Below, in pieces: positions 1 to 46,682 of a DNA stretch of 47,112 nucleotides. The translations under genes and the position numbers were made by a program. Positions within the stretch are counted from its first letter, which is position 1; every line of letters begins with the position of its first letter. The notes beneath the pieces are model-generated. The model searched no databases and was not told the DNA's origin. It saw only the letters and a list, made by a program, of their open reading frames with translations. This DNA comes from a virus, in IMG/VR virus record IMGVR_UViG_3300045988_044952. One strand, 5' to 3'.

Positions 1-99
1 ACGGGTAGTGTCACATTAGTACAACACTACCCAAAAACAACACCCGTGATATTCTGGTCATTATCAATTCTAATTTCTTTAATGACAGAACGCCAAAGC
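1..99. repeat. Left copy of the 99-nt exact terminal direct repeat (assembly/circular-permutation overlap)
   Basis: Positions 1-99 are identical base for base to 47014-47112. The repeat covers the 3' end of the integrase gene, so it is redundancy of a circular molecule, not an element boundary. Confidence 0.95.
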
Positions 100-1424
100 G
101 TGCGTTTTTCTTCACGGGTCAAATTCTCATAAATTGTTTTGAAATCATTATCAAGGAGCCTGCGGACGGCTGCGAAGTCTGGCGGCGGTTCAATGCTGGG
201 TTCCGGTATCTGTTTAAGTGCAGCAGTATATATTTGATAGTCCCTTTTGTAGTCCTCAATGTCTATTAAGTCATTCACATATAATTCTTTTAACTTGGTC
301 AGCTTCCGTTTCAGTGCTGCTTTATCAGTGCGGGCAACGGACGCTTTCTTTTTGGCTGTGGCAACTTCCCATTCCAGCTGGCAGCGTTCCAGTTCCTCTG
401 CCAGATGTTCAAACAGCCACTTTTCCACGACGTCTTCACGGGCTGAATGATTATGAGAGCAGCGCCCACGCTGGAAATGCTGGTTGCAGCGGTAATAATA
501 ATAATCACTTGACTTGTACCCGACCAGTTTATGCCCACATTCAGCGCAAGTCAGAATGGAAGTGAAAATATATACCTTGCCAGACGGAACAGAACGTGCG
601 TTGCGTTCCAGAAGCGCTTGCACACGGTCAAACTGCTGCTTGCTGATGATTGCCGGGCAGAAATGGTCATTGAACCTGCCGCCCCGGTCATACACCCCAG
701 TATACAGCTTTTCTTTCAGCATACGCCGGAAAGTGGCGTCACACCAGTTCACGCCGTAGGTTTCCCGGATATAGCGGACAGTAGCACGCTGGGAAATCGA
801 AGTTTCAAAGTAGTTGAAAGCGTCTTGCACAATGGCTGCGTCTTCTGGCACAACTTCCAGCCGCTTTTCCTCATTAACACGGAAGCCAAAGGGAGCAGAG
901 CCGGAAACAACGGTGCCGTGGGCAATCTTACTGTCAAATACAACGTCTATTCGTTCCCCGTCAATGTCCGCTTCATTCTGGGCAATGGACAGCTTCACGT
1001 TAATATACAGACGCCCGTTTGCGGTTGTGGTGTCATATTCTTCATCAGTGGTTTTCCAGTCGCAGTTGTGCGCTTCCAGAACTTCCATGATTTTATAATA
1101 ATCTGCCACGGAACGAAACCAGCGGTCAAGGCGGCAGAAAAGCAGAATATTCACTTCATCACGCTTCACACTGTCCATCATGCGTTGAAAGTCGGTTCTT
1201 TTATGAATGTTCTTTCTGGCGGTCTTGGCAGCGTCAATGTAAATTCCAACAATGACCCAGCCACGTTCCCTTGCGTATGCTTCCAGTCGTTCTTGCTGGG
1301 CTTCCAGTGACAGACCTTTTATTTTCTGTTCTTCCCCGGAAACCCTTATATATAAAGCAACCCGGACAAGTTCCGGGCTTAAATCAATCTTTTTCACTAT
1401 TGTATCACCTGCATTTCCTTTCAT
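27..1424 (-). CDS. int: Large serine recombinase (phage integrase)
   Basis: ORF 27-1517(-). Start moved to ATG 1424 (MKGNAGD..). It has an N-terminal resolvase-type catalytic domain (VALYIRVSGEEQ), a recombinase domain, a Cys-rich zinc ribbon (CAECGHKL...CNQHFQRGRCSH) and a coiled-coil C-terminal part. Confidence 0.9.
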   Translation of the reverse strand: MKGNAGDTIVKKIDLSPELVRVALYIRVSGEEQKIKGLSLEAQQERLEAYARERGWVIVGIYIDAAKTARKNIHKRTDFQRMMDSVKRDEVNILLFCRLDRWFRSVADYYKIMEVLEAHNCDWKTTDEEYDTTTANGRLYINVKLSIAQNEADIDGERIDVVFDSKIAHGTVVSGSAPFGFRVNEEKRLEVVPEDAAIVQDAFNYFETSISQRATVRYIRETYGVNWCDATFRRMLKEKLYTGVYDRGGRFNDHFCPAIISKQQFDRVQALLERNARSVPSGKVYIFTSILTCAECGHKLVGYKSSDYYYYRCNQHFQRGRCSHNHSAREDVVEKWLFEHLAEELERCQLEWEVATAKKKASVARTDKAALKRKLTKLKELYVNDLIDIEDYKRDYQIYTAALKQIPEPSIEPPPDFAAVRRLLDNDFKTIYENLTREEKRTLWRSVIKEIRIDNDQNITGVVFG

Positions 1425-1536
1425 TTCCCGCCTGCTGGTGATATAATCAAAATTGCAGACGGTATTGTTGTATCTGGTATGACATATCTTTGCACGCCCC
1501 GGAAGTGTTCCCAGCACGACCGGGGCATTTTGTTTA

Positions 1537-2376
1537 TTAGTCTTTCAGAATGTCGTCTGTAAAGGCTGTTATTTTCTGACTTACAAAAGAAGAATAGTTT
1601 TCTAAATCCTGTTTAGGGTTATCACCTTGCAGCATGACAAATTCAGATAAAGCAACAATCTGATTTTGTACGTCAATCAAGGCTTGACCGTAGTATGAAA
1701 CGTCTGGACCGAAGCCAACGGAAGAAACCTGCTCATAATGCCACGCAGCACGCTTCTTTAAATCCACCAGAACAGGAACGGACGCTTTTTGCAGCTGGGA
1801 AACGGTATTTGCGTCGGAGTGTACCAGCTGCCCCCAGCGTGTCAGCTGTTCTTCCGTGATGTATCGTGGGTCTTCCGGGTGTCGCTTTATGTGTATAAAG
1901 TTATACAGACAGAAGATACCGAACAGGGCGGCAACAACTGAAAAAATAACATGAGAAGAAGCAAAGAGGAACACGGCACCAGCCAGAGCAACGACGCCGA
2001 ACACAACAAAGCTGGCGTCTGGTCTTTCCTGCAAAACTGCCGTGGTCTTTGGCGGCTTCTCTTTTGGCTGCGCAGCTGCTTTCTGAACTTTAGCAGGAGC
2101 AGGAGCGGCAGCAGGAGAGGAAGCAGAGGAACTGGCGGCGGCAGCAGTGGAAGAAACACGGCTGCTGACTGTCTTTTTCTTTTTGCTTTTCAAATTCTCG
2201 GTCTTAACGTAAGAAACACCAGTGCCGGGAACCCCTATGCTGGTTGTGACCCTGCCGCTGCTGTTTATACTTTTACGATACCCCTTGACGCCTGCACTTA
2301 TACCAACGCTTTTCTTGCTGATGTTAAGACGGACGCCGGGGGCAATTTTCACGCTTTTTCTGAAACGTAAACCCAT
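1537..2376 (-). CDS. DUF4236-like membrane protein (lysogeny-module gene, function unknown)
   Basis: The N-terminus MGLRFRKSVKIAPGVRLNISKKSVGISAG resembles the DUF4236 signature. It has an Ala/Ser/Pro-rich linker and a long hydrophobic segment (FVVFGVVALAGAVFLFASSHVIFSVVAALFGIFCLY). RBS AAAGGTGG. Confidence 0.6.
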   Translation of the reverse strand: MGLRFRKSVKIAPGVRLNISKKSVGISAGVKGYRKSINSSGRVTTSIGVPGTGVSYVKTENLKSKKKKTVSSRVSSTAAAASSSASSPAAAPAPAKVQKAAAQPKEKPPKTTAVLQERPDASFVVFGVVALAGAVFLFASSHVIFSVVAALFGIFCLYNFIHIKRHPEDPRYITEEQLTRWGQLVHSDANTVSQLQKASVPVLVDLKKRAAWHYEQVSSVGFGPDVSYYGQALIDVQNQIVALSEFVMLQGDNPKQDLENYSSFVSQKITAFTDDILKD

Positions 2377-2613
2377 ATAAAACCACCTTTCTTGCGAATA
2401 TCCACAAAAACATAGAAATTATAATAGTGAGTGCGCCCAGCCTTGCCACGCCGGAAAGGTGGTCACACATGATAAAAAAATATATACACTGGTATGATTG
2501 CAGAGTGTACGCAATCTATTACAGCAGCATAAACACTATTTATTATAATTTAGATTTCAATGGAGCAACGCAACTTATAATTTGTAAATAGCGGGGGGAC
2601 GCTGGGTGCGTTA

Positions 2614-3078
2614 TCACCCGGCGTCTGTCCCGGAAACACTGCCAGTGTCAACGGGCGGGCACTGGGCTTCTAAATCTTCTGGATTGTCTGGAACTAACAA
2701 TGCAGGGTCCGCAGTAACAGCAGCAACAAGCCTGCGTTTGAAAAATTCCACGGCAGTTCTTCTAATTTCTGGGTCAAGTTCAAAGTACGTCTTTATGATT
2801 TCCAATTCAAGACCCGTGGCACCTTTAGACTTCACGAAGTCGTCAAGGCTGAATGTGTCCGGCTGTATATACATTTCACCAGAACCAGTGCGCAACCATT
2901 CTTCATTCACATTATAAAGAAGACAGATTGCCTTGATTGTCTGGTCAGTGACGGTTGAGCCGTCCCGTTCCATGTAGCTGACGCCAGTTTGCTTCATTCC
3001 CAGACTTACTGCAAATTCAGTCTGGCTGATGTGCAAAACATCTTTTCTAAAATGCTTCACACGTTCATTGATAGTCAT
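2614..3078 (-). CDS. XRE-family HTH repressor (cI-like)
   Basis: The N-terminal HTH_XRE pattern (ISQTEFAVSLGMKQTGVSYMERDGSTVTDQTIKAICLLYNV) is followed by a C-terminal extension. The gene is divergent from the rightward early operon and shares an operator-rich intergenic region with it. Confidence 0.85.
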   Translation of the reverse strand: MTINERVKHFRKDVLHISQTEFAVSLGMKQTGVSYMERDGSTVTDQTIKAICLLYNVNEEWLRTGSGEMYIQPDTFSLDDFVKSKGATGLELEIIKTYFELDPEIRRTAVEFFKRRLVAAVTADPALLVPDNPEDLEAQCPPVDTGSVSGTDAG

Positions 3079-3108
3079 TTGACTTCACCGCCTTTCTTTT
3101 ATGTTTAA

Positions 3109-3211
3109 AGAATAGCAGTAACCGCTAAAAAAGTCAATATTAAAAACGGAAAAAGGGTTGACAAATAGCAGTAACCGCTATAATATATAGTTAAACAAGC
3201 AGTAACCGCTA
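3109..3211. promoter_or_regulatory. Divergent immunity promoters with three copies of operator AGCAGTAACCGCTA
   Basis: Operators lie at 3114-3127, 3167-3180 and 3198-3211. The core matches its own reverse complement at 10 of 13 positions. Rightward promoter: TTGACA 3158-3163, then TATAAT 3179-3184 (15-nt spacer) or TAATAT 3181-3186 (17 nt). Leftward promoter (minus strand): TTGACT (3132-3137), 17 nt, TATTCT (3109-3114). Each spacer holds one operator. Confidence 0.65.
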
Positions 3212-3266
3212 CAACAGAAGCGTTTACCGCTTGCGAAACCACACAGCATGAAAGGAGGAACAGACC

Positions 3267-3446
3267 ATGACAGAAGTTAAAAACATGGAAACCATGATTG
3301 CAACTGAAAACCAGCAGGAAGCAACAGAGGTCATGGCTTTTCTGGGGGAACTTGAACCGCAGGAAAAGAAAGACTTTCTGGTGTTCATGCAGGGCATAAG
3401 ATTTGCAAAGGGCATGGCACAGAAAATTGCGCCGCAGTCCGTATAA
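3267..3446 (+). CDS. Small early protein, 59 aa (below the ORF-track cutoff)
   Basis: ATG 3267 is preceded by GAAAGGAGGAA, with stop TAA at 3444-3446. Translation: MTEVKNMETMIATENQQEATEVMAFLGELEPQEKKDFLVFMQGIRFAKGMAQKIAPQSV. First gene after the rightward promoter. No HTH recognised. Confidence 0.55.
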   Translation: MTEVKNMETMIATENQQEATEVMAFLGELEPQEKKDFLVFMQGIRFAKGMAQKIAPQSV

Positions 3447-3460
3447 AGGAGGGCGCAGGA

Positions 3461-3598
3461 ATGGAAGTACAAGGAACATTCAATGCCCAGCGCTTTTTTG
3501 AAACGCTGGCGCTGATTATATCCCAGCGGGAGGGCGTGAAAGTCACCGTGACAGTGACACAGCCAGAGCCGGAGAAGAAAGAAAAGCAGTCAGCGTGA
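3461..3598 (+). CDS. Small early protein, 45 aa (below the ORF-track cutoff)
   Basis: ATG 3461 is preceded by AAAGGAGGG, with stop TGA at 3596-3598. Translation: MEVQGTFNAQRFFETLALIISQREGVKVTVTVTQPEPEKKEKQSA. Confidence 0.5.
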   Translation: MEVQGTFNAQRFFETLALIISQREGVKVTVTVTQPEPEKKEKQSA

Positions 3599-3618
3599 GC
3601 GCCGGGCAGCAGCAGAAA

Positions 3619-3641
3619 CAAAGGTTTTTCAAAAGTCAATA
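3619..3641 (+). repeat. Left 23-nt direct repeat flanking the second DGR target cassette
   Basis: CAAAGGTTTTTCAAAAGTCAATA matches 4958-4980 (CAAAGGCTTTTCAAAAGTCAATA) at 22 of 23 positions. Confidence 0.8.
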
Positions 3642-3706
3642 GCAGTGAATAGCAGCAAGGCTGTTCAAATAAAAATCATACCAGATACAAGGAGGAAAGC
3701 CACAAA

Positions 3707-4729
3707 ATGAAAGAATTTGTGAAGAAAAAAGCAGTCATTGTCATGGACAGTGCAGGACTGCCAAACTACATGACCATGTTTTATATGGAGCCGGGGACCT
3801 ATGAGCCGGAGGACGTGCCGGAACTGTTCAAAATCAGAAACAAGATTGTTCCTGCGGTTCTGGTGTCGCAGTTCACCAACACCATGATTAAGGGCGTCCC
3901 GGCGTCCTTACCTTACCAGCAGCCAAAACACACTATCAGTTATGATGAAGCGGCGGCAGCCTGCGGAAGAAAAGGCAAGGGCTGGCACCTTATGACAAAT
4001 ACAGAGTTTGTCTATCTACTGCATGAAGCAGAGGAACTGGGGCACACAATCGGCGGTAATACAAACTACGGCAGCAACTCAAAGAATGAGCAGGAAAGCG
4101 GCGTGAGATACGACAGCGCCGGACGCACGCTGACCGGGTGCGACCCCCTCACATGGTCCCATGACGGAACAGCAGACGGCGTGTTTGGTCTTTGCGGTAA
4201 TTTCTGGGAATGGGTCACGGGCTTGCGTCTGCACAAAGGCGTTGTGGAATACACGCCGAACAACGACGCAGCAGTTGAGGGCTACACAGAGAAGCCAGAC
4301 TGGACCGTTGCAGAGGTGAACGGCAGACCGTTGAAGCTGTACGGCAACAGTGCTGGTGATGTGGTAATGTCCGTTGCGGAAGAAATCGAAGAAAACTGGG
4401 AGGGCTGCCACATGGCAGACTTGCAGCTGGAAGAACTGGAAGAAATGCCAGAAATTGCGTACAAGCTGGGAATTGTACCGCATGACTGGAAGAACGAAAC
4501 AGCCGGAATATGGGCAGACAACGAACTTGAAGAAGCCGTGCCTCTCCGGGGTTCGAGTGTCAACTACTCTTCCGATGGTGGTGCTGGTGCGCTGGGCTTG
4601 GGCTACCCTCGTTCTTTCGTCTGCAACGTTGTGTCGTTCCGTTCCGCTTTATTCTTGGAAAGCTGGGAACTGGTAACTGATTTACTGAAAGCGGGTGCGG
4701 AAGCACACGCAGGAGCGAAGGACGAATGA
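3707..4729 (+). CDS. DGR variable protein 2 (C-type-lectin/FGE-sulfatase-like fold), remote target
   Basis: 340 aa. Full-length paralog of 37433-38485, sharing the motifs RKG.GWHL, GNTN, TW.HDGT and LCGN.WEWV. The C-terminal segment 4535-4649 is a VR copy of the TR at 39085-39199. Confidence 0.9.
   Translation: MKEFVKKKAVIVMDSAGLPNYMTMFYMEPGTYEPEDVPELFKIRNKIVPAVLVSQFTNTMIKGVPASLPYQQPKHTISYDEAAAACGRKGKGWHLMTNTEFVYLLHEAEELGHTIGGNTNYGSNSKNEQESGVRYDSAGRTLTGCDPLTWSHDGTADGVFGLCGNFWEWVTGLRLHKGVVEYTPNNDAAVEGYTEKPDWTVAEVNGRPLKLYGNSAGDVVMSVAEEIEENWEGCHMADLQLEELEEMPEIAYKLGIVPHDWKNETAGIWADNELEEAVPLRGSSVNYSSDGGAGALGLGYPRSFVCNVVSFRSALFLESWELVTDLLKAGAEAHAGAKDE
4535..4649 (+). repeat. DGR variable repeat 2 (VR2)
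   Basis: 115 nt align without gaps to TR 39085-39199. There are 16 differences: 15 at TR adenines and one T-to-G (TR 39109 / VR 4559). Confidence 0.9.
4691..4710 (+). other. GC-rich hairpin 42 nt downstream of VR2 (inside the coding sequence)
   Basis: GCGGGTGC-GGAA-GCACACGC. The stem pairs at 7 of 8 positions and the loop is 4 nt. A counterpart lies at 38512-38533 downstream of VR1. Confidence 0.55.
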
Positions 4730-11466: not shown

Positions 11467-11555
11467 TACTTACGGAAGTATACAAAATGCACAAATATAC
11501 TTCCGTAAGATTGTGTAAAATGTCGATTGCTTTTATACTTCCGTAAGTATATAAT
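11467..11555 (+). promoter_or_regulatory. Promoter/operator cassette A (3 copies of the TACTTCCGTAAGTA motif), drives the 11607-parAB operon
   Basis: Motif copies at 11467-11480 (reverse orientation), 11498-11511 and 11536-11549. Promoter: TTGCTT 11527-11532, 17 nt, TATAAT 11550-11555, with the third copy filling the spacer. Confidence 0.65.
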
Positions 11556-11606
11556 AAAGACAGTCAAAGGAACAACAACACAACATAGAAAACGGAGGTA
11601 TAAGCA

Positions 11607-11885
11607 ATGACAAAGAAGCAGTTAAAAGAAGCATACACAAACTGGAATAGAGAAATCACAAAGCTGGGAGAAAGAAAAAGAGAAATTTTCAAAGAGTTGC
11701 AGGAAATGTGCGCAGAGAAAGGCGACGGGAACCGCTGGTGTTGCATTGAAAAGTTGGTAGAGGAACTGACAAAGAAAGGCTATGTATACACCGCTATGAA
11801 CTTGATAAGCGAGTATTACAATATATGCGGACAGGAAGAAGCGTTGCTGAACCTTGCATTAGCAACAAATAATTTTGAGATTTAA
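11607..11885 (+). CDS. Hypothetical protein, first gene of the par operon
   Basis: ATG after AACGGAGG. 92 aa, helical, no motif recognised. Confidence 0.55.
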   Translation: MTKKQLKEAYTNWNREITKLGERKREIFKELQEMCAEKGDGNRWCCIEKLVEELTKKGYVYTAMNLISEYYNICGQEEALLNLALATNNFEI

Positions 11886-11888
11886 AAA

Positions 11889-11961
11889 GCACGGGTGGCG
11901 CAATGGATAGCGCAGCAGCCCCCGAAGCTGCCGGGTGCGGGTTCAAGTCCCGTCCCGTGCA
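11889..11961 (+). tRNA. tRNA-Arg (anticodon CCG) with C at position 33
   Basis: Manual cloverleaf of 73 nt: acceptor GCACGGG/CCCGTGC, D arm GCGC-AATGGATA-GCGC, anticodon arm GCAGC-CCCCGAA-GCTGC, variable loop CGGGT, T arm GCGGG-TTCAAGT-CCCGT, discriminator A. No encoded CCA. Confidence 0.8.
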
Positions 11962-12012
11962 TTACTGGGAAAAGAAACTATAAACATACCAGATACAAGG
12001 AGGAATACCCCA

Positions 12013-12773
12013 TGAAAACATTATCAATCATTAACTTAAAAGGTGGAGTGGCAAAGACCATTTCCAGCGTTAATATGGCACACATTCTGGCAGCAATACA
12101 CGGCTGCAAAGTCCTGTTAATCGACAACGACAAGCAGGGGAACGCCAGCAAGATTTTGAACCGCCACAGTTACGACCATAAGGGAACCGCAGAGGTTATG
12201 ACCCAGCGTGGCATTGACCCGGCAGCAGTTATCCAGCACACCGATTATGACGGCTTGGACATTATCACAGCAAACATGAACCTGCTGACAGCCAATTTGG
12301 AAGTCATGCTGGACCAGTCCAGACCGCAGCAGACCCGCTTTGTGAAGTTTCTTGACGGGTTACAGCAGGAATATGACTACTGCATTATTGACAACGCCCC
12401 GGACATTAACATTTCCACAATCAATGCGCTGGTGGCTTCACAAGACGTCATGGTGCCTATCACTATTGATGATTTTGCGATTGACGGGTTGGCAGAGCTG
12501 AAAGAACAGATTGACAACACCCGTGAGGATTTGAACCCGCAGCTGCGCTTTTGCGGTTGCTTTGTCACCCAGTACGACAGAACCAATGAAGCGGACACAC
12601 AGGGGGAAGAATTTCTGAAAACACTTGAATACCCGGTTTTCAATACGCATATCAGAAAGACACCGAAAATGAAGCCCAGCACGTTTGAGAGATTGCCAAT
12701 CATTCTGTATTCACCACGTTGCGGAGCAGCAGTAGACTATAAAGCATTGGTGGACGAGTGGTTGAAGATGTGA
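12013..12773 (+). CDS. parA: ParA/Soj-type partition ATPase
   Basis: Start moved to ATG 12013, because the ORF-track extension from 11895 overlaps the tRNA. Deviant Walker A (LKGGVAKTISSVN), then LLIDNDKQGN and a Walker B-like CIIDNAPD. Confidence 0.9.
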
Positions 12774-12803
12774 CCAATTCGGACACGTTAGGAGGGAAAA
12801 AGC

Positions 12804-14225
12804 ATGGCAGGAACAACACCGAAATTCAATCTGACAAGATTATTAAATGAGCGTTCCAGAGAAGCGGCAGTGCAGGAAAACAAGGAGGAGAAAACAGCAG
12901 AGATTGCCACGCCGGAAGACGGCGTGAGCAGTACCGCTGATATTTACGACCTTATACCGTCCAAAGGCAATTTTTACAGCGTGGAAGATGTGCAGGACTT
13001 GAAACAGTCCATAGAACTTCTGGGAGTATTACAACCGCTGCTGGTCACTGATGAAGAAGAAGACGGCAAGCGCCGCATTATCGCAGGACACAGAAGACGC
13101 CTTGCGGTCATGCAGCTGGTGGACGAGGGAAAAGAGCGTTTCAGACGTGTTCCAATCTTAATCAAGCCAAAGAAAAACGCTATTCTGGACAGACTGGCAC
13201 TGATTATGGCAAACCGCTTCCGTGAAAAGACAGACTGGGAACGCATGACAGAAGCATTGGAAACAGAAAAACTGGTGCTGGAATTGAAAGAAAGCATGAG
13301 TATTCCGGGTAGAACCCGTGATTTGCTGGCTGAAATCATAGAAACGTCACCTGCACAGATTGGAAGATATAAGGCAATATATAACAACCTCATTCCAGAG
13401 CTAATGGCAGAGTTTAAGGCAAACAGAATTGTTGTATCTGTAATTTATGAAGCGTCCGGGCTTCCGGCAGACTATCAGCAGCAGGCGGCAGAAATGTTCC
13501 GGGAAAATGAGGTGCTGACAATAGCAGATATTAAGCAGTTAAAGAAGAACTATGAAGCGGCGCAGCAGATACCGGGACAAATGGACATGAACCAGTTTGA
13601 AGACCAGCAGCAGGCAGCGGGAGAGGAAACAACGACCGCAGAGGGCGAAGAAGACCAGAAGCCGGAGGAAGAAACGGAAACGGGAGCAGAGGGAACAGAG
13701 GGAGCAGAGGAAGCCGCCGGGCAGCAGCCAGAATATGTGGACCCGCAGCCGGAGCAGATAACGTCATTGTGTTACAGCTGCACACATTATGAGGATTGCC
13801 ACGACAAGACAGCAACCGTGACAAGCTGCAATGCTTATAAGAACCGCAGAGAAGCCCAGAAGACGGACGAAGAACGATACAACGAGGAACAGGCAGCTAT
13901 TGACCGGGAAACCAGAAAGAAGCTGCGTGAGAAGCAACAGGAAGAAAAAATGCAGCAGTTACCGTCTGACGGTCAGCAGAAGCAGAGGGACATTAGATTG
14001 ACGCCGCAGAAGTACGCTGAAATCACCGCAGGCAAGCTGACGTTCCTTTTGCTGAAAAAAGACGGCTTCAAAATCGGTGAGGAACTGGAACTGGGAGAGT
14101 TCACGGACGGAAAAGCGACAGGACGCAAGATTGACGTTGAGATTGTTTATATCTGGGCAGACTGGACGGGGCTTGATGATGATTACTGCATTATCGGTTT
14201 CAATGTCACGGCATTTGATGAATAG
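12804..14225 (+). CDS. parB: ParB N-terminal-domain protein fused to a C-terminal DUF3850/ASCH-like domain
   Basis: ParB/Srx box (LLGVLQPLLV...IIAGHRRRLAV), an acidic low-complexity linker, a Cys cluster (CYSCTHYEDC..C) and a C-terminal PUA-like segment (KLTFLLLKKDGFKIGEELELGEF...IDVEIVYI). Confidence 0.8.
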   Translation: MAGTTPKFNLTRLLNERSREAAVQENKEEKTAEIATPEDGVSSTADIYDLIPSKGNFYSVEDVQDLKQSIELLGVLQPLLVTDEEEDGKRRIIAGHRRRLAVMQLVDEGKERFRRVPILIKPKKNAILDRLALIMANRFREKTDWERMTEALETEKLVLELKESMSIPGRTRDLLAEIIETSPAQIGRYKAIYNNLIPELMAEFKANRIVVSVIYEASGLPADYQQQAAEMFRENEVLTIADIKQLKKNYEAAQQIPGQMDMNQFEDQQQAAGEETTTAEGEEDQKPEEETETGAEGTEGAEEAAGQQPEYVDPQPEQITSLCYSCTHYEDCHDKTATVTSCNAYKNRREAQKTDEERYNEEQAAIDRETRKKLREKQQEEKMQQLPSDGQQKQRDIRLTPQKYAEITAGKLTFLLLKKDGFKIGEELELGEFTDGKATGRKIDVEIVYIWADWTGLDDDYCIIGFNVTAFDE

Positions 14226-14816: not shown

Positions 14817-15299
14817 ATGGCGCAGGCAATGGAAAAAAGCAAGGTGATTGAATTGTTGGAATACTACAAGGACATAGACGGGGAGGTGAGCATTTACAGA
14901 AAAATCATAACTGATTTAACGGACCAATACTACAACCCCATTGGCGCTATACAGTGCGACGGTCTTCCAAAGGGAAAAAATAATATATCACGACAAACAG
15001 AAAATATGGCGTTGAACATTCCAGATTATGTCAGCGGAGAAATCAGAGAGTATGAAGAAAAGGTGCAGCAGTTGCAGAACCTCAAAGCACAGATGTTACA
15101 GGAGATTTCAAGGTTGAAACTGAAAGAAAAGCGCATTATTTTTGATTTTTACATTCACAACCTCAAATGGGAGCGAGTAGCGGAACGGAACGCATACAGT
15201 GAACGGCAGTGCAAGAACATTAGAGATAATGCCCTTGAAACGCTTTCACAGAGGTTCGGAAAGAACCAGATTATTTCACAATTTCATAAGGTTGCATAA
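14817..15299 (+). CDS. ArpU/RinA-like late transcription regulator (sigma-70 region-4-like)
   Basis: 160 aa, located just upstream of the packaging genes. The C-terminal segment LKEKRIIFDFYIHNLKWERVAERNAYSERQCKNIRDNALETL resembles a sigma region-4 HTH. Confidence 0.6.
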   Translation: MAQAMEKSKVIELLEYYKDIDGEVSIYRKIITDLTDQYYNPIGAIQCDGLPKGKNNISRQTENMALNIPDYVSGEIREYEEKVQQLQNLKAQMLQEISRLKLKEKRIIFDFYIHNLKWERVAERNAYSERQCKNIRDNALETLSQRFGKNQIISQFHKVA

Positions 15300-15392: not shown

Positions 15393-15437
15393 TGGGCTTT
15401 GACGATTTTTTGAAATTACAAAGCCCATAATTTTTTT
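15393..15437 (+). terminator. Rho-independent terminator between the late regulator and the packaging genes
   Basis: GGGCTTTG (15393-15400) pairs with CAAAGCCC (15419-15426) and is followed by a T7 run (15431-15437). Confidence 0.6.
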
Positions 15438-15496
15438 ATACTTCCGTAAACCGGGAGGGTTCGGAAGAATGAAAACAAACGAAAAGAGGTGAGGAC

Positions 15497-16306
15497 ATGG
15501 GAAGACCACGCAACCCAGAACGGGACAAGTCGCTACAACGCTATCTGGACGCAGACGGCAAGATTGGAACAGCAGAACTGGCGAAGCTGGCAGGTGTGCC
15601 GGAAAGCCGTATAAGGAAATGGAAGTCAGAAGACAGCTGGGAAGAAGCGCTAAAAAAGAAGCCCAGAAAAAGAGGGGGGCAAAAGGGAAATAAAAATGCA
15701 GCAGGAAAAACCCCAGCAAAAAAGGGGAATAAAAACGCCGTGACGCATGGTGCCTTTGCACAGGCGGGCTATGAGGATATAGACCCGGAGCAGGCAGAAG
15801 CAATAAAGAACATGGGCACGCCGTCTGCACTATCGCAAATGATGAATGAATTGCAGGCGTTGTATGTACGCAAAGCCTATCTGGAAAGCCTACTGCAACA
15901 GTATGAAGCAGCAGACGCCGGGGGCTTCTACACTGATAAGGTAGTACACATGATTGTACCAAAGAGTATGGAGGAACGCCGGGAGGAAGAAGACTGCGGC
16001 ATGGAGCAGACGCAGGCAGCAGACCCAGAGGGCGGCAAGGAGATATACAAAACGGCTATGAAATCCATTATCAAGTCAAGCCCATTCGACAGGGCAATGA
16101 AAGTGGAAGCCGAACTAAACAAGCTGCATGGGCGTATCATTAAGCAGCTGGACAGCATCAAAGCCTATGAGTTGGAGGACAGACGCTTGACGCTGGCTGA
16201 AAAGCAATTTGAATTGAATAAACAGAAACTAACGGGTGAATTTAAGATTGACCCAGAGGAAGACGGAGAAAACGACGAAATAACGGGAATTGTGGACGAG
16301 GTTTGA
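15497..16306 (+). CDS. XtmA/YjcR-like small terminase-type protein (HTH plus GNKNA repeats)
   Basis: N-terminal HTH (IGTAELAKLAGVPESRIRKWKSEDSWEE) followed by GGQKGNKNAAG...KGNKNAVTHGAF, the pattern of PBSX-type small terminase subunits. Confidence 0.65.
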   Translation: MGRPRNPERDKSLQRYLDADGKIGTAELAKLAGVPESRIRKWKSEDSWEEALKKKPRKRGGQKGNKNAAGKTPAKKGNKNAVTHGAFAQAGYEDIDPEQAEAIKNMGTPSALSQMMNELQALYVRKAYLESLLQQYEAADAGGFYTDKVVHMIVPKSMEERREEEDCGMEQTQAADPEGGKEIYKTAMKSIIKSSPFDRAMKVEAELNKLHGRIIKQLDSIKAYELEDRRLTLAEKQFELNKQKLTGEFKIDPEEDGENDEITGIVDEV

Positions 16307-38540: not shown

Positions 38541-38647
38541 GAAACTAAATAACAAAGGTGGTTTAAGGAGAAATGCCAGAAAATACAACAGAACAGCTTC
38601 CGCAACTGGACAACGTGCGGGATAACGCAACGCAGGAAGATTTCAAA

Positions 38648-39031
38648 ATGAAAAACAAGGTTTATGAAATGCTGCTGTATGCGTACCCGGCGTTAGAACA
38701 GTTTCCGAAAGCTGACAGAAAACTTGCTGACCATATCCGGGAAGCAATATTGCAGGTGTTTGAATTGGTGATACACCTTGAAAACAAACACTATAAGAAA
38801 ACGACGCTGGGAGAACTTGACGACCAGCTGGACGTTTTGCGGCACCTTGTAAGACTGGCGGCAGACCAGCAGTTGCACCCAGACAAGAAACCATGCCTGC
38901 CCATGCGCAAGTATGAAATATTGTCACGAAAGATAAATGAAATAGGGTGCATGATTGGCGGGTATTATAAATCACTGAACGGCAGCACGGCTGGAAACGG
39001 CGGTGCTGCAAATAAAAGCAATGGTAAATAG
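38648..39031 (+). CDS. avd: Accessory variability determinant (Avd-like four-helix-bundle protein)
   Basis: Start moved to ATG 38648 (127 aa). MKNKVYEMLLYAYPALEQFPKADRKLADHIREAILQVFELVIHLENKHYK matches the Avd / 23S-rRNA-IVS-protein family pattern. Sits between the target and the TR. Confidence 0.8.
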   Translation: MKNKVYEMLLYAYPALEQFPKADRKLADHIREAILQVFELVIHLENKHYKKTTLGELDDQLDVLRHLVRLAADQQLHPDKKPCLPMRKYEILSRKINEIGCMIGGYYKSLNGSTAGNGGAANKSNGK

Positions 39032-39084
39032 CAGGGTAACACCTGCTTTTTATATTATGGGAATAAGCCGTTAATAGAGGACTT

Positions 39085-39199
39085 GCCGTGCCTATCCGGG
39101 GTTCGAGTTTCAACAACACTTCCAATGGTGGTGCTGGTGCGCTGAACTTGAACAACCCTCGTTCTAACGTCAACAACAATGTGTCGTTCCGTTCCGCTT
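39085..39199 (+). repeat. DGR template repeat (TR)
   Basis: 115 nt with 23 adenines, 20 of them in 8 AAC and 2 AAT codons in the VR reading frame. Matches VR1 and VR2 except at adenines, plus one T in VR2. The track ORF 39088-39303 is this repeat, not a gene. Confidence 0.9.
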
Positions 39200-39460
39200 C
39201 ACCCCATTTCTGCCAGCAGTCGTGTTCACAAGTGGGCACGTCCAGTGCGTATGGGTTAAAGGGGTTTATTTCCATTCCAAAGGCTGCCAGCCGGGAGCCG
39301 TAGGAAAAATATTGAATTGCCGTAAAGATAGTTAGTAAGCCGCAGGCTGAAAGTCAGAGCTGGAAACACTGGCACTGAATGTATATATCACGTTTGGGCT
39401 GCGGAAGAACCGCAGTTTGATTTGTACGGCGAAATTTTAACAACAGGAGGGAAAAGGGAA

Positions 39461-40675
39461 TTGCACAAAATCAAAAACATTTTCCCTATAATTTATGACT
39501 TTGAAAATCTCTTCAATGCGTATAAAGCCGGGATAAAGTGCAAGAGGTACAGACCAGATGTGATGGCGTACACGGATAAGCTGGAAGAAAACTTGATTGA
39601 ATTACAGAATGAATTTATCTGGCAGACCTACACCGTGGGGCGCTACAACATATTTTATGTTTACGAACCGAAAAAGCGCATGATTATGTCATTGCAATTC
39701 AAAGACCGGGTGGCACAGCACGCTATATATAGCCAGCTGAACCCGTATTTTGAAAAGCAGTTCATACATGACAGCTACGCTTGCAGAGTAGGCAAGGGAA
39801 CACACAAAGCAGTCAACCGCCTGCATAACTGGTTGAAGCAGACAGACCGGAAGCCGCAGCGTTTCTATTATTTGAAACTGGATATTGCAAAGTATTTTTA
39901 CCGGATAGACCATGAAGTATTGATGGACATTTTGCGGAAAAAGATTGCTGATAAAGATTTGTTGCACGTCTTGTCAGTAATTATAAACTGCGAAGACACA
40001 AACTTTGGTCTGCCGCTGGGCGCAGATATTGGCGACGTGGCGTTTGATGAATTGCTGGGAGAAGTTGGGCTGCCTATTGGCAATCTGACTTCACAAATGT
40101 TTGCAAATTTGTATTTGAATGAACTTGACCAGTTCTGCAAACACAAATTGCACCTGCGTTATTACATACGTTACATGGACGACATTATAATTTTGCACCC
40201 AGATAAAAAGTATCTGGAAAAGATAAAGAACAAAATTGCGGACTTTCTGGAAAAAGAACTGCGGTTGCAGCTTAACAAGAAAACCTGCATAAGACCAACC
40301 AGCATGGGCATTGAGTTTGTAGGGTTCCGCATTTGGTCAACGCACATAAAATTGCGCAAGAAGACGGCAAAGAAGCTGAAACGTAGATTGAAATATATGT
40401 TTGCAGCATATCACGCAGGAGAGATTGACAAAGATACACTGGATAGGTCCGTTGCTTCATACCGGGGCATATTACAGCATTTCAACAGCTACGGTATGCG
40501 CCAGAGCCTAAACGAACTGTACTTGCAGGAAATGGGCAAGCCATATCCAGAGCCGGAGAAGAAGCCAGCAAGTAAATGCGGTATATTCTGCGGATATTAC
40601 GGCAGCGCTGATGATTATATCAAGCAGCCAGAAGAAAAGGAGGTGACGGACAGTGGAAGCAATGCAGACGCTTAA
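39461..40675 (+). CDS. DGR reverse transcriptase
   Basis: Contains LPIGNLTSQMFANLYLNELD (the DGR-type I/LGxxxSQ motif) and YIRYMDDIIIL (YxDD). There is no in-frame ATG near the N-terminus, so the start is TTG 39461 (10 nt after AGGAGG) or TTG 39422. Confidence 0.9.
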   Translation: MHKIKNIFPIIYDFENLFNAYKAGIKCKRYRPDVMAYTDKLEENLIELQNEFIWQTYTVGRYNIFYVYEPKKRMIMSLQFKDRVAQHAIYSQLNPYFEKQFIHDSYACRVGKGTHKAVNRLHNWLKQTDRKPQRFYYLKLDIAKYFYRIDHEVLMDILRKKIADKDLLHVLSVIINCEDTNFGLPLGADIGDVAFDELLGEVGLPIGNLTSQMFANLYLNELDQFCKHKLHLRYYIRYMDDIIILHPDKKYLEKIKNKIADFLEKELRLQLNKKTCIRPTSMGIEFVGFRIWSTHIKLRKKTAKKLKRRLKYMFAAYHAGEIDKDTLDRSVASYRGILQHFNSYGMRQSLNELYLQEMGKPYPEPEKKPASKCGIFCGYYGSADDYIKQPEEKEVTDSGSNADA

Positions 40676-44327: not shown

Positions 44328-44552
44328 CTATGCAATAGCAACCAGTCTTTCTGCACCCATTTTTCTTTCACGAACAACGCCATCTTGATTGCTTTTCAGA
44401 AGACAAGTGATTGTCTTTCCGGTCTTGCTTGGGATAAGGTCAACCACGGTGCTTGTATATCCGTAGTTCCACATGATAACGTCCCCGGTCTTTAATTCTT
44501 TTACTGCCTTTGCTTCCTGCTTGTTATATATTCCTTGAAGTTTTACTGTCAT
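44328..44552 (-). CDS. Hypothetical protein
   Basis: Start moved to ATG 44552 (MTVKLQG..) behind GGAGGGCAAAGCA. The ORF-track N-terminal extension runs through the promoter cassette. Confidence 0.55.
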   Translation of the reverse strand: MTVKLQGIYNKQEAKAVKELKTGDVIMWNYGYTSTVVDLIPSKTGKTITCLLKSNQDGVVRERKMGAERLVAIA

Positions 44553-44592
44553 TGCTTTGCCCTCCGTGTTCTGTATTTCTTTAACTGCCTTT

Positions 44593-44681
44593 ATTATATA
44601 CTTACGGAAGTATAAAAGCAATAGACACAATGCACAAACTTACGGAAGTATAATTGTATAATATGTATACTTCCGTAAGAT
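44593..44681 (-). promoter_or_regulatory. Promoter/operator cassette C (3 motif copies)
   Basis: Minus-strand promoter: TTGCTT (44616-44621), 17 nt, TATAAT (44593-44598). Motif copies at 44599-44612 (in the spacer), 44637-44650 and 44668-44681. Confidence 0.65.
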
Positions 44682-44690
44682 AAAAGCATT

Positions 44691-44924
44691 TTACATGGTG
44701 CCGATAAAATCAGAACTGGTCAGCGTCCAGAACTGCGCAGCGTGGATAGTTGGGAATTTTGGAATTTCCCATGTGATATTGTCATACACAATTTTATATA
44801 TACCATTCTGGTTGACTGTCAGATAATATTTATCTGTATCAGTTTTGCGGTCTGCCGGGTGCGTGTCCTGCACCATGAATGAAAGCCCGTTCTTTCTAAA
44901 GCGTCTATTATAAGATTTTGCCAT
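44691..44924 (-). CDS. Hypothetical protein
   Basis: 77 aa. RBS AAAGGTGA. No motif recognised. Confidence 0.5.
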   Translation of the reverse strand: MAKSYNRRFRKNGLSFMVQDTHPADRKTDTDKYYLTVNQNGIYKIVYDNITWEIPKFPTIHAAQFWTLTSSDFIGTM

Positions 44925-44945
44925 ATTATTTCACCTTTTCTTTCT

Positions 44946-44965
44946 GGGCGGCAGCAGTGCCGCCC
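44946..44965. repeat. GC hairpin copy 2 (GGGCGGCA-GCAG-TGCCGCCC) in front of the RBS of the 44924 gene
   Basis: Same stem as 43988-44007, and the same flanking TTCTTTCT. Confidence 0.7.
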
Positions 44966-44974
44966 GTGTAATGT

Positions 44975-45271
44975 TTAATCAAGCACACATTCCATTGATA
45001 TTGGGTATTGCGCTTGCAGCTTTTCAAATGCCTTTTCAGTGACACGATAGGAAAGCCAGTTTTCAATTTGCTGCTTGCAGCCAGCCACCCAGCAGACTTC
45101 CTGCTTTGTAATGCCCCTGCCGTTGAGTTCAAGCGGGGTATCTACAATGTAATAGTTACCGTAATGTGAAAGTCTGGCTTCCAGTTTCACGTCCGGTTTA
45201 CGTTGTCCCATTTCTGGGGTGTAGCAGTGCAGCCCGTTTATTCTGTCTTCTAAATAAATTATTTTTGCCAT
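44975..45271 (-). CDS. Hypothetical protein
   Basis: 98 aa. ATG 45271 behind GGAGGGCAAACGAT. No motif recognised. Confidence 0.55.
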   Translation of the reverse strand: MAKIIYLEDRINGLHCYTPEMGQRKPDVKLEARLSHYGNYYIVDTPLELNGRGITKQEVCWVAGCKQQIENWLSYRVTEKAFEKLQAQYPISMECVLD

Positions 45272-45312
45272 ATCGTTTGCCCTCCGTGTTCTGTATTTCC
45301 TTAACTGTCTTT

Positions 45313-45401
45313 ATTATATACTTACGGAAGTATAAAAGCAATAGACACAATGCACAAATATACTTCCGTAAGATTGTATAAAATGTATACTTCCGTAAGA
45401 A
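45313..45401. promoter_or_regulatory. Divergent promoter/operator cassette D (3 motif copies)
   Basis: Minus-strand promoter: TTGCTT (45336-45341), 17 nt, TATAAT (45313-45318). Motif copies at 45319-45332, 45361-45374 and 45388-45401. A possible plus-strand extended -10, TGATATACT, lies near 45411-45419. Confidence 0.6.
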
Positions 45402-45446
45402 AAGAAAGTGTGATATACTAATTAAAAATCACAGGAGGTGCAGAAA

Positions 45447-45689
45447 ATGCCAGATACAACAGAAAAGAAGACAATACCCAGAGGACCAGCAGCCACGGCA
45501 GCAAAAAATAAATACCGTGACAGCAATTATGACCGCATGGAACTTGCAGTGCCAAAGGGAATGAAAGCACGCATAAAAGAGATTGCGAAGCAGCAGGGCT
45601 ATTCTTCCCAGAACAACTATGTTGTGGAAGCGGTGAAAGAGAAATACAAGCGGGACACCGGGGAGGAATTGACGTGGCAGAAAGAGTAA
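45447..45689 (+). CDS. Ribbon-helix-helix (Arc/CopG-like) DNA-binding protein
   Basis: ATG 45447 lies 8 nt after AGGAGG. KYRDSNYDRMELAVPKGMKARIKEIAKQQGYSSQNNYVVEAVKEKY fits a beta-strand-helix-helix pattern. Confidence 0.6.
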   Translation: MPDTTEKKTIPRGPAATAAKNKYRDSNYDRMELAVPKGMKARIKEIAKQQGYSSQNNYVVEAVKEKYKRDTGEELTWQKE

Positions 45690-45859
45690 AAGAACAGGAA
45701 TTTGAAACGGGCTTTTTGCATGGCTGGGACGGCTCGGACTGTATATATTATACAGACGAAAAGTGCCTATATTATAATGACGCAGAAGCACCGTGCCACC
45801 ATTGCCACCACTACACAAGGAAGACACAACAGAAAGGGGGAATAGTCTATGGAATATAG
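45674..45859 (+). CDS. Small Cys/His-rich protein
   Basis: GTG start 7 nt after GGAGG. Contains CIYYTDEKCLYYNDAEAPCHHCHHY. Confidence 0.45.
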   Translation: MAERVKEQEFETGFLHGWDGSDCIYYTDEKCLYYNDAEAPCHHCHHYTRKTQQKGGIVYGI

Positions 45860-46124
45860 AATGAAAGATATTATGGAACCACCAAAGACATTGGAGGAGC
45901 AGAAGAAAGAAGCCAGAGAAGCGGCAATGGCAGCAGGAGCAGAGGTGCTGGGCGAAGAATGGAAGCCGGGAACACTGGAAAACGTGAAAAGACAGGTTGA
46001 AAACGCCTACACAGATTTAAAAGGGTGTGGACTATACAAAGAAGAAAAGCATTTCAGAAATGGAATGGACCTCATGTATAATAATGTGATTGACATTATA
46101 AATTCAGAACTGGGGAGGAAGTAG
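45849..46124 (+). CDS. Hypothetical protein
   Basis: 91 aa. RBS AAAGGGGG. Confidence 0.5.
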   Translation: MEYRMKDIMEPPKTLEEQKKEAREAAMAAGAEVLGEEWKPGTLENVKRQVENAYTDLKGCGLYKEEKHFRNGMDLMYNNVIDIINSELGRK

Positions 46125-46125
46125 C

Positions 46126-46281
46126 GTGGAAGAAAAGCGGTGCTGCATAATTCATAATTACTATGTATGCCCGGTATGCAAAACGGGGTACTGCAAACCG
46201 TTTGGAGAGGTGAAAACAAGACCAATACAGAAATGCAGGAAGTGCAATAAAACTGTTAGAATGACAATAAATGGAAAATAA
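46126..46281 (+). CDS. Small zinc-ribbon protein, 51 aa (below the ORF-track cutoff)
   Basis: GTG 46126 lies 7 nt after GGAGG. Translation: MEEKRCCIIHNYYVCPVCKTGYCKPFGEVKTRPIQKCRKCNKTVRMTINGK. Stop TAA at 46279-46281. Confidence 0.45.
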   Translation: MEEKRCCIIHNYYVCPVCKTGYCKPFGEVKTRPIQKCRKCNKTVRMTINGK

Positions 46282-46293
46282 TTAAAAAAACTA

Positions 46294-46322
46294 TTGATAA
46301 TATACTTCCGTAAGTATATAAT
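46294..46322 (+). promoter_or_regulatory. Promoter/operator cassette E
   Basis: TTGATA (46294-46299), 17 nt, TATAAT (46317-46322). The motif copy at 46303-46316 fills the spacer. Confidence 0.7.
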
Positions 46323-46388
46323 AAAGGCAGTTAAAGCAATAGTGCTTAACACAAAAAGTCAATACAATTCAATACGGAGGAAATCAAA

Positions 46389-46682
46389 ATGGCAGAAATG
46401 ACAAAGAAAGCATTAAACAAAATCAAGGCAGCAGCGTTCACAGAATTTAAGCAGGGTTTTTCAGAGGAAGAATTTAGAAACCTGTTCGCAGGCGGCAAGA
46501 ACGTAGTGACAGCGTGGAGAATTACAGAGGGAACAAAAAGCAAGATTGTGATTACACAGTATGACACGCAGATTAACACGAACACTTTACAGCAGGACGG
46601 CTTCACAGAAGCAGCAACAGCAGAAAAGCTGTTCTATGCTGACCGCCAGACAAAGACACTGGAATTTGTAGGCAGAATGTAA
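46389..46682 (+). CDS. Hypothetical protein
   Basis: 97 aa. ATG after ACGGAGGAAATCAAA. Confidence 0.55.
   Translation: MAEMTKKALNKIKAAAFTEFKQGFSEEEFRNLFAGGKNVVTAWRITEGTKSKIVITQYDTQINTNTLQQDGFTEAATAEKLFYADRQTKTLEFVGRM

Follow-up and report, generated by a model that had tools for sequence, protein, structure and literature searches.

The 47,112-nt viral sequence analysed here (IMG/VR record IMGVR_UViG_3300045988_044952, below called the window) carries a short repeated element, several copies of which lie inside the spacers of near-identical promoters. We read this element as the operator of the phage's own 80-aa ribbon-helix-helix (RHH) protein, which would repress the promoter cassettes through the site within each spacer (O1) and would regulate its own gene; we put the probability of this reading at about 0.72. 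The binder is very probably this protein, whose gene adjoins one of the site clusters, and not the ParB-like protein of the same phage. The regulon would consist of variable small genes, an operon of a 92-aa gene, tRNA-Arg, ParA and the ParB-like protein, the RHH gene itself, and perhaps the terS promoter.

A first-pass annotation of the window had proposed that a second dedicated regulator controls several near-identical promoters, and had named as candidates the RHH protein, by analogy with Aca repressors, and the ParB-domain protein, by analogy with KorB. Such a regulator is supported by the placement of the site within promoter spacers and by comparison with about 200 related sequences, and the RHH candidate is favoured by an autoregulatory geometry in about 130 loci and by the way in which operator and protein change together. 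The positions of the sites, their conservation, their architecture and this co-change are direct observations, and they carry the argument below.

The repeated site and its promoter cassettes

With at most two mismatches allowed, TACTTCCGTAAGTA has 15 strand-wise matches in the window against a chance expectation of 0.25, and the largest count across 100 shuffled sequences was 3. The invariant unit is the 13-mer ATACTTCCGTAAG, present in 10 exact copies and one with a single mismatch, all 11 of them intergenic. The full site is an 18-bp near-palindrome, TATACT-TCCGTA-AGTATA, whose right arm overlaps the -10 box.

The earlier description of the motif largely holds, and every copy listed was found where it had been placed. 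Its 5-nt arms TACTT/AAGTA around a 4-nt core do form an inverted repeat, but the true element is the 18-bp TATACT-N6-AGTATA. The copy at 15439-15452, called degenerate, has one mismatch in the 13-mer but an exact 12-mer core. The motif is also rightly kept apart from the operator of the XRE switch: AGCAGTAACCGCTA is a separate triple repeat (Table 1), the operator of the lysis–lysogeny switch.

Four copies lie inside the 17-nt spacers of promoters whose -35 box is TTGCTT or TTGATA and whose -10 box is a perfect TATAAT. When these cassettes, A to D, are aligned, an invariant block runs from the TTG of the -35 box through the operator and the -10 box into the leader AAAGrCAGTyAA (AAAG[A/G]CAGT[T/C]AA), so the conserved leader of the first-pass annotation is real. 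Its 83-nt repeat also stands, with 81 of 83 positions identical between 44556-44638 and 45276-45358. The motif was further said to fill the spacer exactly; it does sit in the spacer and abut the -10 box, but the 14-mer covers 14 of the 17 positions. Across 148 distinct cassettes information content peaks at the TTG of the -35 box and at both operator and -10 box, and drops in the flanks, and the 12-mer is invariant while the flanks diverge, in phages down to about 72% DNA identity.

Clusters A, B and C follow one plan. O1 is the full site TATACTTCCGTAAGTATA and shares its final two bases with the start of TATAAT. The distance from O1 to O2 is 38 bp in A and B and 42 bp in C, and that from O1 to O3 is 69 bp in all three; O2 and O3 retain only ATACTTCCGTAAG, that is, one arm and the core. 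Promoter D has a single site (O1 only). Promoter C and the RHH gene are divergent, as they are in relatives, which also show the same layout at the RHH promoter, a site followed by TGnTATAnT.

The leader AAAGrCAGTyAArG follows directly after the -10 box at 11550-11575, 44570-44598, 45290-45318 and 46317-46345. It is as conserved as the operator in closer relatives and absent from distant specificity classes, and was for this reason rejected as a family-wide element. It may work as an initially transcribed sequence or as an mRNA element, or else belong to the protein's footprint. An Rfam scan of the whole window returned tRNA only, and the leaders match no known RNA family.

The RHH protein and the sites across relatives

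Loci were retrieved with the RHH protein as query, and in 50 IMG/VR loci and 25 genome loci a site cluster lies at most about 130 bp upstream of the RHH gene. Altogether about 130 related phage or prophage loci have the cluster directly upstream of this gene and over its promoter, which is the geometry of an autoregulated gene. At about 58% identity or above, all loci with upstream sequence show the divergent layout and the same 12-mer, with O1 in the promoter spacer and O2/O3 over the RHH promoter; the exceptions are L042, L043 and L044, and these fit a repressor model. In L043 a cassette and a small cargo gene precede the RHH gene, which is likely co-transcribed with that cargo gene, again a feedback layout; in L042 and L044 the same RHH protein has no upstream operator and a cassette follows directly. 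Clostridium phage Saumur has the same sites around its 'Arc-like repressor' gene, upstream of the ParA operon and in the replication region. An exact-match scan of IMG/VR for the operator plus -10 box gave at least 118 stretches. Among the matches listed, nearly all sites lie upstream of ParA or adjoin an RHH gene, and stretches that include terS usually have one more single site, about 50 bp upstream of that gene. The genes flanking RHH vary on both sides, and RHH is therefore the only constant partner of the sites.

Co-change of operator and protein is the strongest evidence pointing to RHH as the binder. Homologues at 47-64% identity keep the three-site architecture, the arms TATACT/AGTATA and the N-terminal motif A-T-x-AKNKY. 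In the same homologues the central 6 bp differs, as does the sequence of and just before the RHH beta-strand, which reads DSLRIVV, DQFLITV, DQVKLWV or DRLYPYA in place of DRMELAV; N27V accompanies ACCGTA. About 8 specificity classes result: KNKY..NYDRMELAV goes with the core TCCGTA, KKKY..VYDRMELAL with ACCGTA, NYDSLRIVV with TGTACA, AYDQFLITV with TATATA, HYDQVKLWV with GGTACC, NYDRLYPYA with CACGTG, HYDRLYPVV with TGCGTA or TGCACA, and NYDRISIVV with TGAACA or TGCACA. All two or three sites of a locus carry that locus's core.

We set beforehand the prediction that a sister subfamily with a different N-terminal motif should have different arms. The sister subfamily with SKAQQKAVHKY..NYDR (IMG/VR loci L269-L275) has ATATT/AATAT arms in the same three-site divergent layout, with locus-specific cores, and a member with the beta-strand DRMELTV has the core TACGGG, nearly the TACGGA of the window. 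Because the three-site layout recurs in this subfamily, the architecture is family-wide in Firmicutes mobile elements. Neither a host factor nor an unrelated phage protein can explain the co-change seen across these loci.

By sequence and profile similarity the 80-aa protein is assigned to the RHH (Arc/MetJ/CopG) superfamily. It matches phrog_13890 (E=2.8e-18) and the Arc-like families phrog_582 (E=1.5e-5), phrog_3178 and phrog_228 (up to 7e-3). A profile of its family run against PDB listed AmrZ (E=0.01) and Arc (E=0.014), with alignments spanning the strand and both helices, as well as 1y9b, and nothing else. Some homologues carry the Arc/RepB Pfam domains PF03869 or PF10723, and the Saumur homologue was annotated 'Arc-like repressor' from HHpred alone. 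An AlphaFold2 (AF2) model of the monomer has helices at residues 39-50 and 55-71, as expected for RHH, and an N-terminal helix at residues 14-24. The family is large (2391 clusters at 50% identity, E<=1e-3) and appears to be uncharacterised as far as the libraries go; none of the literature searches made turned up a paper describing this RHH–operator system.

Mechanism and competing readings

In the mechanism that we propose, an RHH dimer or dimer of dimers would bind the 18-bp site; its beta-sheet, inserted into the major groove at the centre, would read the 6 bp of the core, and the conserved N-terminal helix (A-T-x-AKNKY) would read the TATACT arms. RHH at O1 would exclude the host sigma-A type RNA polymerase and so repress the promoter, because the site occupies a spacer of the optimal 17 bp and reaches two bases into the -10 box. 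O2 and O3 (38-42 and 69 bp upstream) would probably add cooperativity, and their occupation at the weak extended -10 promoter of the RHH gene would cap RHH synthesis. By analogy with Reg576, Aca and Arc, the cassettes would fire in a burst when phage DNA enters an RHH-free cell, be shut off as RHH accumulates, and be silent in the lysogen. Activation by RHH is unlikely, because the spacer is already optimal.

Several points weigh against this reading. Three of the four -35 boxes (TTGCTT) match TTGACA at 3 of 6 positions, and a simple promoter scan called only cassette D, at 46.3 kb (11/12); the scan required a 4/6 match, and A to C went uncalled because TTGCTT falls below this. The strength of the 'strong promoters' of the first-pass annotation is therefore presumed from sequence. 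O2 and O3 lack symmetry, and the core, without exception TCCGTA, is not a perfect palindrome; a simple symmetric dimer model fails to explain this. The classes of covariation are few (about 8-10), the assignment of residues to bases is our own, and distant loci were found by the RHH search, so that adjacency is there partly by construction. The window protein itself scores no Pfam or NCBIfam family. Its AF2 monomer is of moderate quality (pLDDT, the predicted local distance difference test, of 75), with residues 30-34 modelled as a short helix and not a strand, and Foldseek found no PDB match to it below E=2, a monomer of an obligate-dimer fold being a poor query. We infer the whole mechanism, from binding, direction of regulation and stoichiometry to timing and cargo function, from sequence alone. 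The 'anti-defence burst' in particular is an analogy, and the cargo genes carry no assigned function.

The ParB_N+DUF3850 protein could instead bind the sites, as a KorB-like global repressor or as a centromere binder for which the clusters would be parS-like. It has a true ParB N-terminal domain with the arginine patch GHRRRLA, and the operon that encodes ParA and the ParB-like protein is directly preceded by a three-site cluster, both in the window and in dozens of relatives. Moreover the full sites are 16-18-bp near-palindromes, the kind to which parS and the KorB operator belong, and KorB of IncP plasmids likewise has about a dozen dispersed near-palindromic operators and is a ParB-domain protein within its regulon. 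Here the sites track RHH, not the ParB-like protein. A natural deletion variant, L138 (IMGVR_UViG_3300045988_007948, about 1500-4100), has lost the 3' end of ParA (193 aa left) and the whole ParB-like gene, yet retains the three-site cluster, the small downstream genes, the activator, terS and the terS site. Across loci with an identical operator the ParB-like protein ranges from 43 to 100% identity, and the operator varies in step with the RHH sequence and is always found right beside the RHH gene, 33 kb from ParB. On these grounds ParB was rejected as the binder of the motif and is very improbable in this role, although it may well have a site of its own.

The same cluster upstream of a small Walker-type ParA (253 aa) would suit RHH as an omega- or ParG-like centromere binder, the clusters serving as centromeres with ParA for an extrachromosomal genome and regulation being a side effect. 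Omega of pSM19035 is an RHH regulator tied to partition. ArtA of pSK41 (PMC2777438) is another, and the window protein weakly matches phrog_795, 'partition protein ATPase' (E=0.0054). Yet the RHH gene lies 33 kb from parA and a ParB-like gene takes the partner position: repeats lie upstream of parA, as in a type Ib partition layout, but the place immediately downstream of parA, where that layout has its RHH gene, is taken by a ParB-like gene. A large serine recombinase gene is present in the phage and relatives are found integrated in chromosomes, most sites would be left unexplained within promoter spacers of unrelated small genes, and in L138 the sites persist beside a truncated ParA. We regard this reading as quite improbable.

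A reading with no dedicated regulator, in which the element is a duplicated mobile promoter cassette, a set of O3-O2 RNA hairpins or terminators, or a host-factor site, is hardly credible. The near-identity of cassettes B and C does suggest recent duplication or gene conversion, and the O3-O2 pairs of clusters A (11467-11511) and B (44637-44681) are inverted, with potential 13-14-bp RNA hairpins in read-through transcripts that fold at -18 and -21.3 kcal/mol (z about -6). These hairpins have no U tract, cluster C has direct repeats at O2/O3 and no hairpin (z = -1.3), and O2, at one and the same position, faces either way in different relatives; a hairpin or terminator was accordingly rejected as the primary function of the pairs. 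The invariance of the 12-mer amid diverging flanks also speaks against a merely duplicated cassette, and cores that change with a phage protein against a host factor.

There remains the role of RHH once it is taken as the binder. The P22 immI region has two RHH proteins, Mnt and Arc, which act at one divergent promoter pair, and RHH here could be Mnt-like, a second immunity repressor that silences in the lysogen both toxic or lytic-promoting genes and the cassettes of incoming related phages. Its gene is found in the accessory region that separates the lysis genes from the right end, and has its own, putatively autoregulated promoter independent of the XRE switch; the controlled operon leads toward the putative late activator (phrog_36/248) and terS; and the specificity classes into which the core has diversified are reminiscent of immunity groups. 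Library scans recognised no antirepressor-like gene among the cargo, which tells against it, and we hold this role to be possible but doubtful. It is compatible with the burst upon entry, from which the sequences give no means of separating it.

Regulon, cargo and known systems

Positions of the elements discussed are collected in Table 1. In map order the window holds the recombinase, XRE repressor, replication genes, ParA, ParB-like gene, late activator, terS, structural genes, a diversity-generating retroelement, lysis genes and the accessory region, at the right end; it is a temperate, contractile-tailed prophage of a gut bacterium. The retroelement (38573-40675, +) encodes a bAvd-like protein at 38573-39031, followed by a reverse transcriptase at 39422-40675, and phage Saumur has one too. 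Saumur, whose host is Enterocloster clostridioformis, is the closest deposited relative (about 72-74% DNA identity) and the single meaningful one among deposited phage genomes. RHH genes near-identical to that of the window occur in Lachnospiraceae genomes and in metagenome-assembled genomes labelled Oscillospiraceae, for example Hominiventricola filiformis.

Table 1. Coordinates of sites, promoters and genes in the window
Feature	Position	Strand	Remarks
Large serine recombinase	27-1517	-	
XRE repressor	2614-3078	-	
AGCAGTAACCGCTA, three exact copies	3114-3211		Between XRE repressor gene and first rightward gene
Cluster A auxiliary sites	A-O3 11467-11480; A-O2 11498-11511		Whole cluster 11467-11555
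Cluster A promoter	-35 TTGCTT 11527-11532; site 11536-11549; -10 11550-11555	+	
Operon downstream of promoter A	11607-14225	+	92-aa gene 11607-11885; tRNA-Arg(CCG) 11889-11961; ParA 12012-12773; ParB_N+DUF3850 12804-14225
Single site upstream of terS, ATACTTCCGTAA	15438-15450	+	12-mer exact; after terminator hairpin, 47 bp upstream of terS
terS	15497-16306		
Promoter B	44593-44621	-	-10 44593-44598; site 44599-44612; -35 TTGCTT 44616-44621; drives 74-aa gene 44328-44552
B-O2 and B-O3	44637-44650; 44668-44681		Mutually inverted; 38 and 69 bp from B-O1; cluster B 44593-44681
Promoter C	45313-45341	-	-10 TATAAT 45313-45318; site 45319-45332; -35 TTGCTT 45336-45341; drives 98-aa gene 44975-45271
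C-O2, half-palindromic (ATACTTCCGTAAGat)	45361-45374	+	
RHH promoter	45388-45419	+	Extended -10 TGaTATACT 45411-45419; no good -35; C-O3 45388-45401 covers -35 position
RHH gene (80 aa), proposed repressor	45447-45689	+	
Promoter D	46294-46322	+	TTGATA 46294-46299; site 46303-46316; TATAAT 46317-46322; drives 97-aa gene 46389-46682
ATACTTCCGTAAG, exact copies	Starts 11469, 11497, 11535, 44601, 44639, 44667, 45321, 45360, 45387, 46302	-, +, +, -, -, +, -, +, +, +	
ATACTTCCGTAAG, one mismatch	Start 15438		

In the operon behind promoter A, an extension of the ParA open reading frame to GTG-11895 overlaps tRNA-Arg(CCG) and is spurious, and the start of ParA is ATG 12012. A 160-aa protein (14817-15299, +) with matches to phrog_36/248 (transcriptional regulator/activator) and a weak one to the sigma-70 ECF superfamily (E=1.7e-4) is probably an activator of the late genes; its gene comes at the end of the operon that starts from an operator-controlled promoter.

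The stretch 15395-15497 has a terminator-like hairpin (gggctttg...caaagccc) and T run, followed by the single site and then by terS. This site is exact where terS identity is at least 77%, and degenerate in Saumur, L105 and L155. The position reads TATAATTCCG in Saumur and TATTATTTCCG in L105, where a -10-like box is followed by TTCCG; in L155 this is less clear. The site may be an operator that evolved on the -10 box of a late promoter in this subgroup. Extra operator copies are found in the early or replication region of some relatives (L098 8753-8897; Saumur, our L002, 43895-43907), upstream of a gene beginning MFIREKKTDC, and therefore the regulon differs between phages.

The first gene after an operator-tagged promoter belongs, across the fetched loci, to at least 19 unrelated families of 47-190 aa, so that the regulatory cassette is conserved and the cargo is swapped. 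A conserved cassette with swapped cargo is the pattern of establishment and anti-defence regions (PMC8708921). The cargo genes of the window had no match in Pfam, PHROG and NCBIfam scans, and ten cargo families from relatives had no Pfam match; no dedicated anti-defence library was searched. The Aca analogy drawn in the first-pass annotation suits the architecture, yet is unproven; the regulated small genes match no known family.

Each single feature of the system has a precedent: the operator in the spacer in Arc, the multi-promoter autorepressor in Reg576 and Aca14, and the partition operon in omega and ArtA. In P22 immI the Arc operator sits in the -35/-10 spacer of a strong promoter divergent to that of the regulator gene; Arc, like the protein here, is a small phage RHH protein, and its negative feedback has a proposed counterpart here. 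Arc has one locus, while here there are at least five loci with 11 sites; the Arc operator is 21 bp long and is bound by a tetramer, in contrast with an 18-bp TATACT-N6-AGTATA and an extra conserved N-terminal helix here. No ant-like gene was recognised in our phage, and RHH is usually made from its own promoter and not co-transcribed with a target.

Reg576 of the Bacillus plasmid p576, an RHH protein, represses the weak promoter of its own gene as well as several strong promoters that serve variable establishment genes, with operator numbers that vary by promoter and a transient burst proposed on entry into a repressor-free cell (PMC6294495; PMC8708921). Our system resembles it in having a weak regulator promoter and several putatively strong ones, mostly with genes of unknown function in small operons. 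It differs in that p576 is conjugative, in that the Reg576 operator is a dual 5'-TTATCCC-3' direct repeat flanking the promoter and not a palindrome in the spacer (PMC6294495), and in that Reg576 has experimental support. A PDB profile search with the RHH family gave no Reg576 match, and the operator is not of the Reg576 type.

Aca14, an anti-CRISPR-associated (Aca) RHH regulator of mobile elements, represses its own and a neighbouring operon through an inverted repeat overlapping the -10 box (PMC13551039). We compared Aca14 (WP_005725436.1) with the window protein by its published description. Its predicted major-groove helical extension is comparable to the conserved N-terminal helix here (PMC13551039). 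At the sequence level the sites are placed like an Aca-type operator, with O1 running into the -10 box of four promoters and O3 lying over the -35 position of the regulator's own promoter. Aca14 is tied to known acr or anti-defence genes in Proteobacteria, whereas our hosts are Lachnospiraceae and the cargo is not recognisable. The best match among solved structures, AmrZ of P. aeruginosa (PDB 3qoq), is an Arc-like RHH protein with an N-terminal extension before the beta-strand; it is a chromosomal regulator of alginate and motility, with marginal similarity and no common genomic context. Omega and ArtA (PMC2777438) likewise set one small RHH protein over dispersed promoters that include a partition operon, but they use heptad or other repeat arrays, and omega is also the centromere partner of a ParA-type protein.

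What the system adds to these precedents is its natural specificity classes and an operator that serves as a search handle. One extension of our reading, speculative and on the whole unlikely, is a two-part code in which the N-terminal helix goes with constant arms and the beta-sheet with a swappable 6-bp core, giving orthogonal classes of 'regulatory immunity', portable cassettes and a second superinfection immunity. If true, this code would have given rise to many mutually orthogonal classes among phages of gut Firmicutes, and the cassette would be a portable unit for capturing unknown anti-defence or establishment genes. A resident RHH would then silence incoming cassettes of the same class, including the ParA and late-gene operon, independently of the CI repressor.

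Phage regulation in gut Lachnospiraceae and other Firmicutes is hardly worked out, and the work proposes a concrete regulator with its operator for a large family of small RHH proteins in their phages and prophages. The specificity classes are a ready source of data from which to work out an RHH recognition code and to build orthogonal repressor–promoter parts. The operator-tagged promoter retrieves at least 19 families of small genes that would be co-regulated and that, by the logic of Aca, Reg576 and archaeal viruses (PMC13551039, PMC8708921, PMC11065993), are candidates for roles in anti-defence, establishment and exclusion. The cultured relative Saumur carries the same system, and its E. 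clostridioformis host strain belongs to the OMM12 mouse consortium; the presence of the system in Saumur makes experiments feasible.

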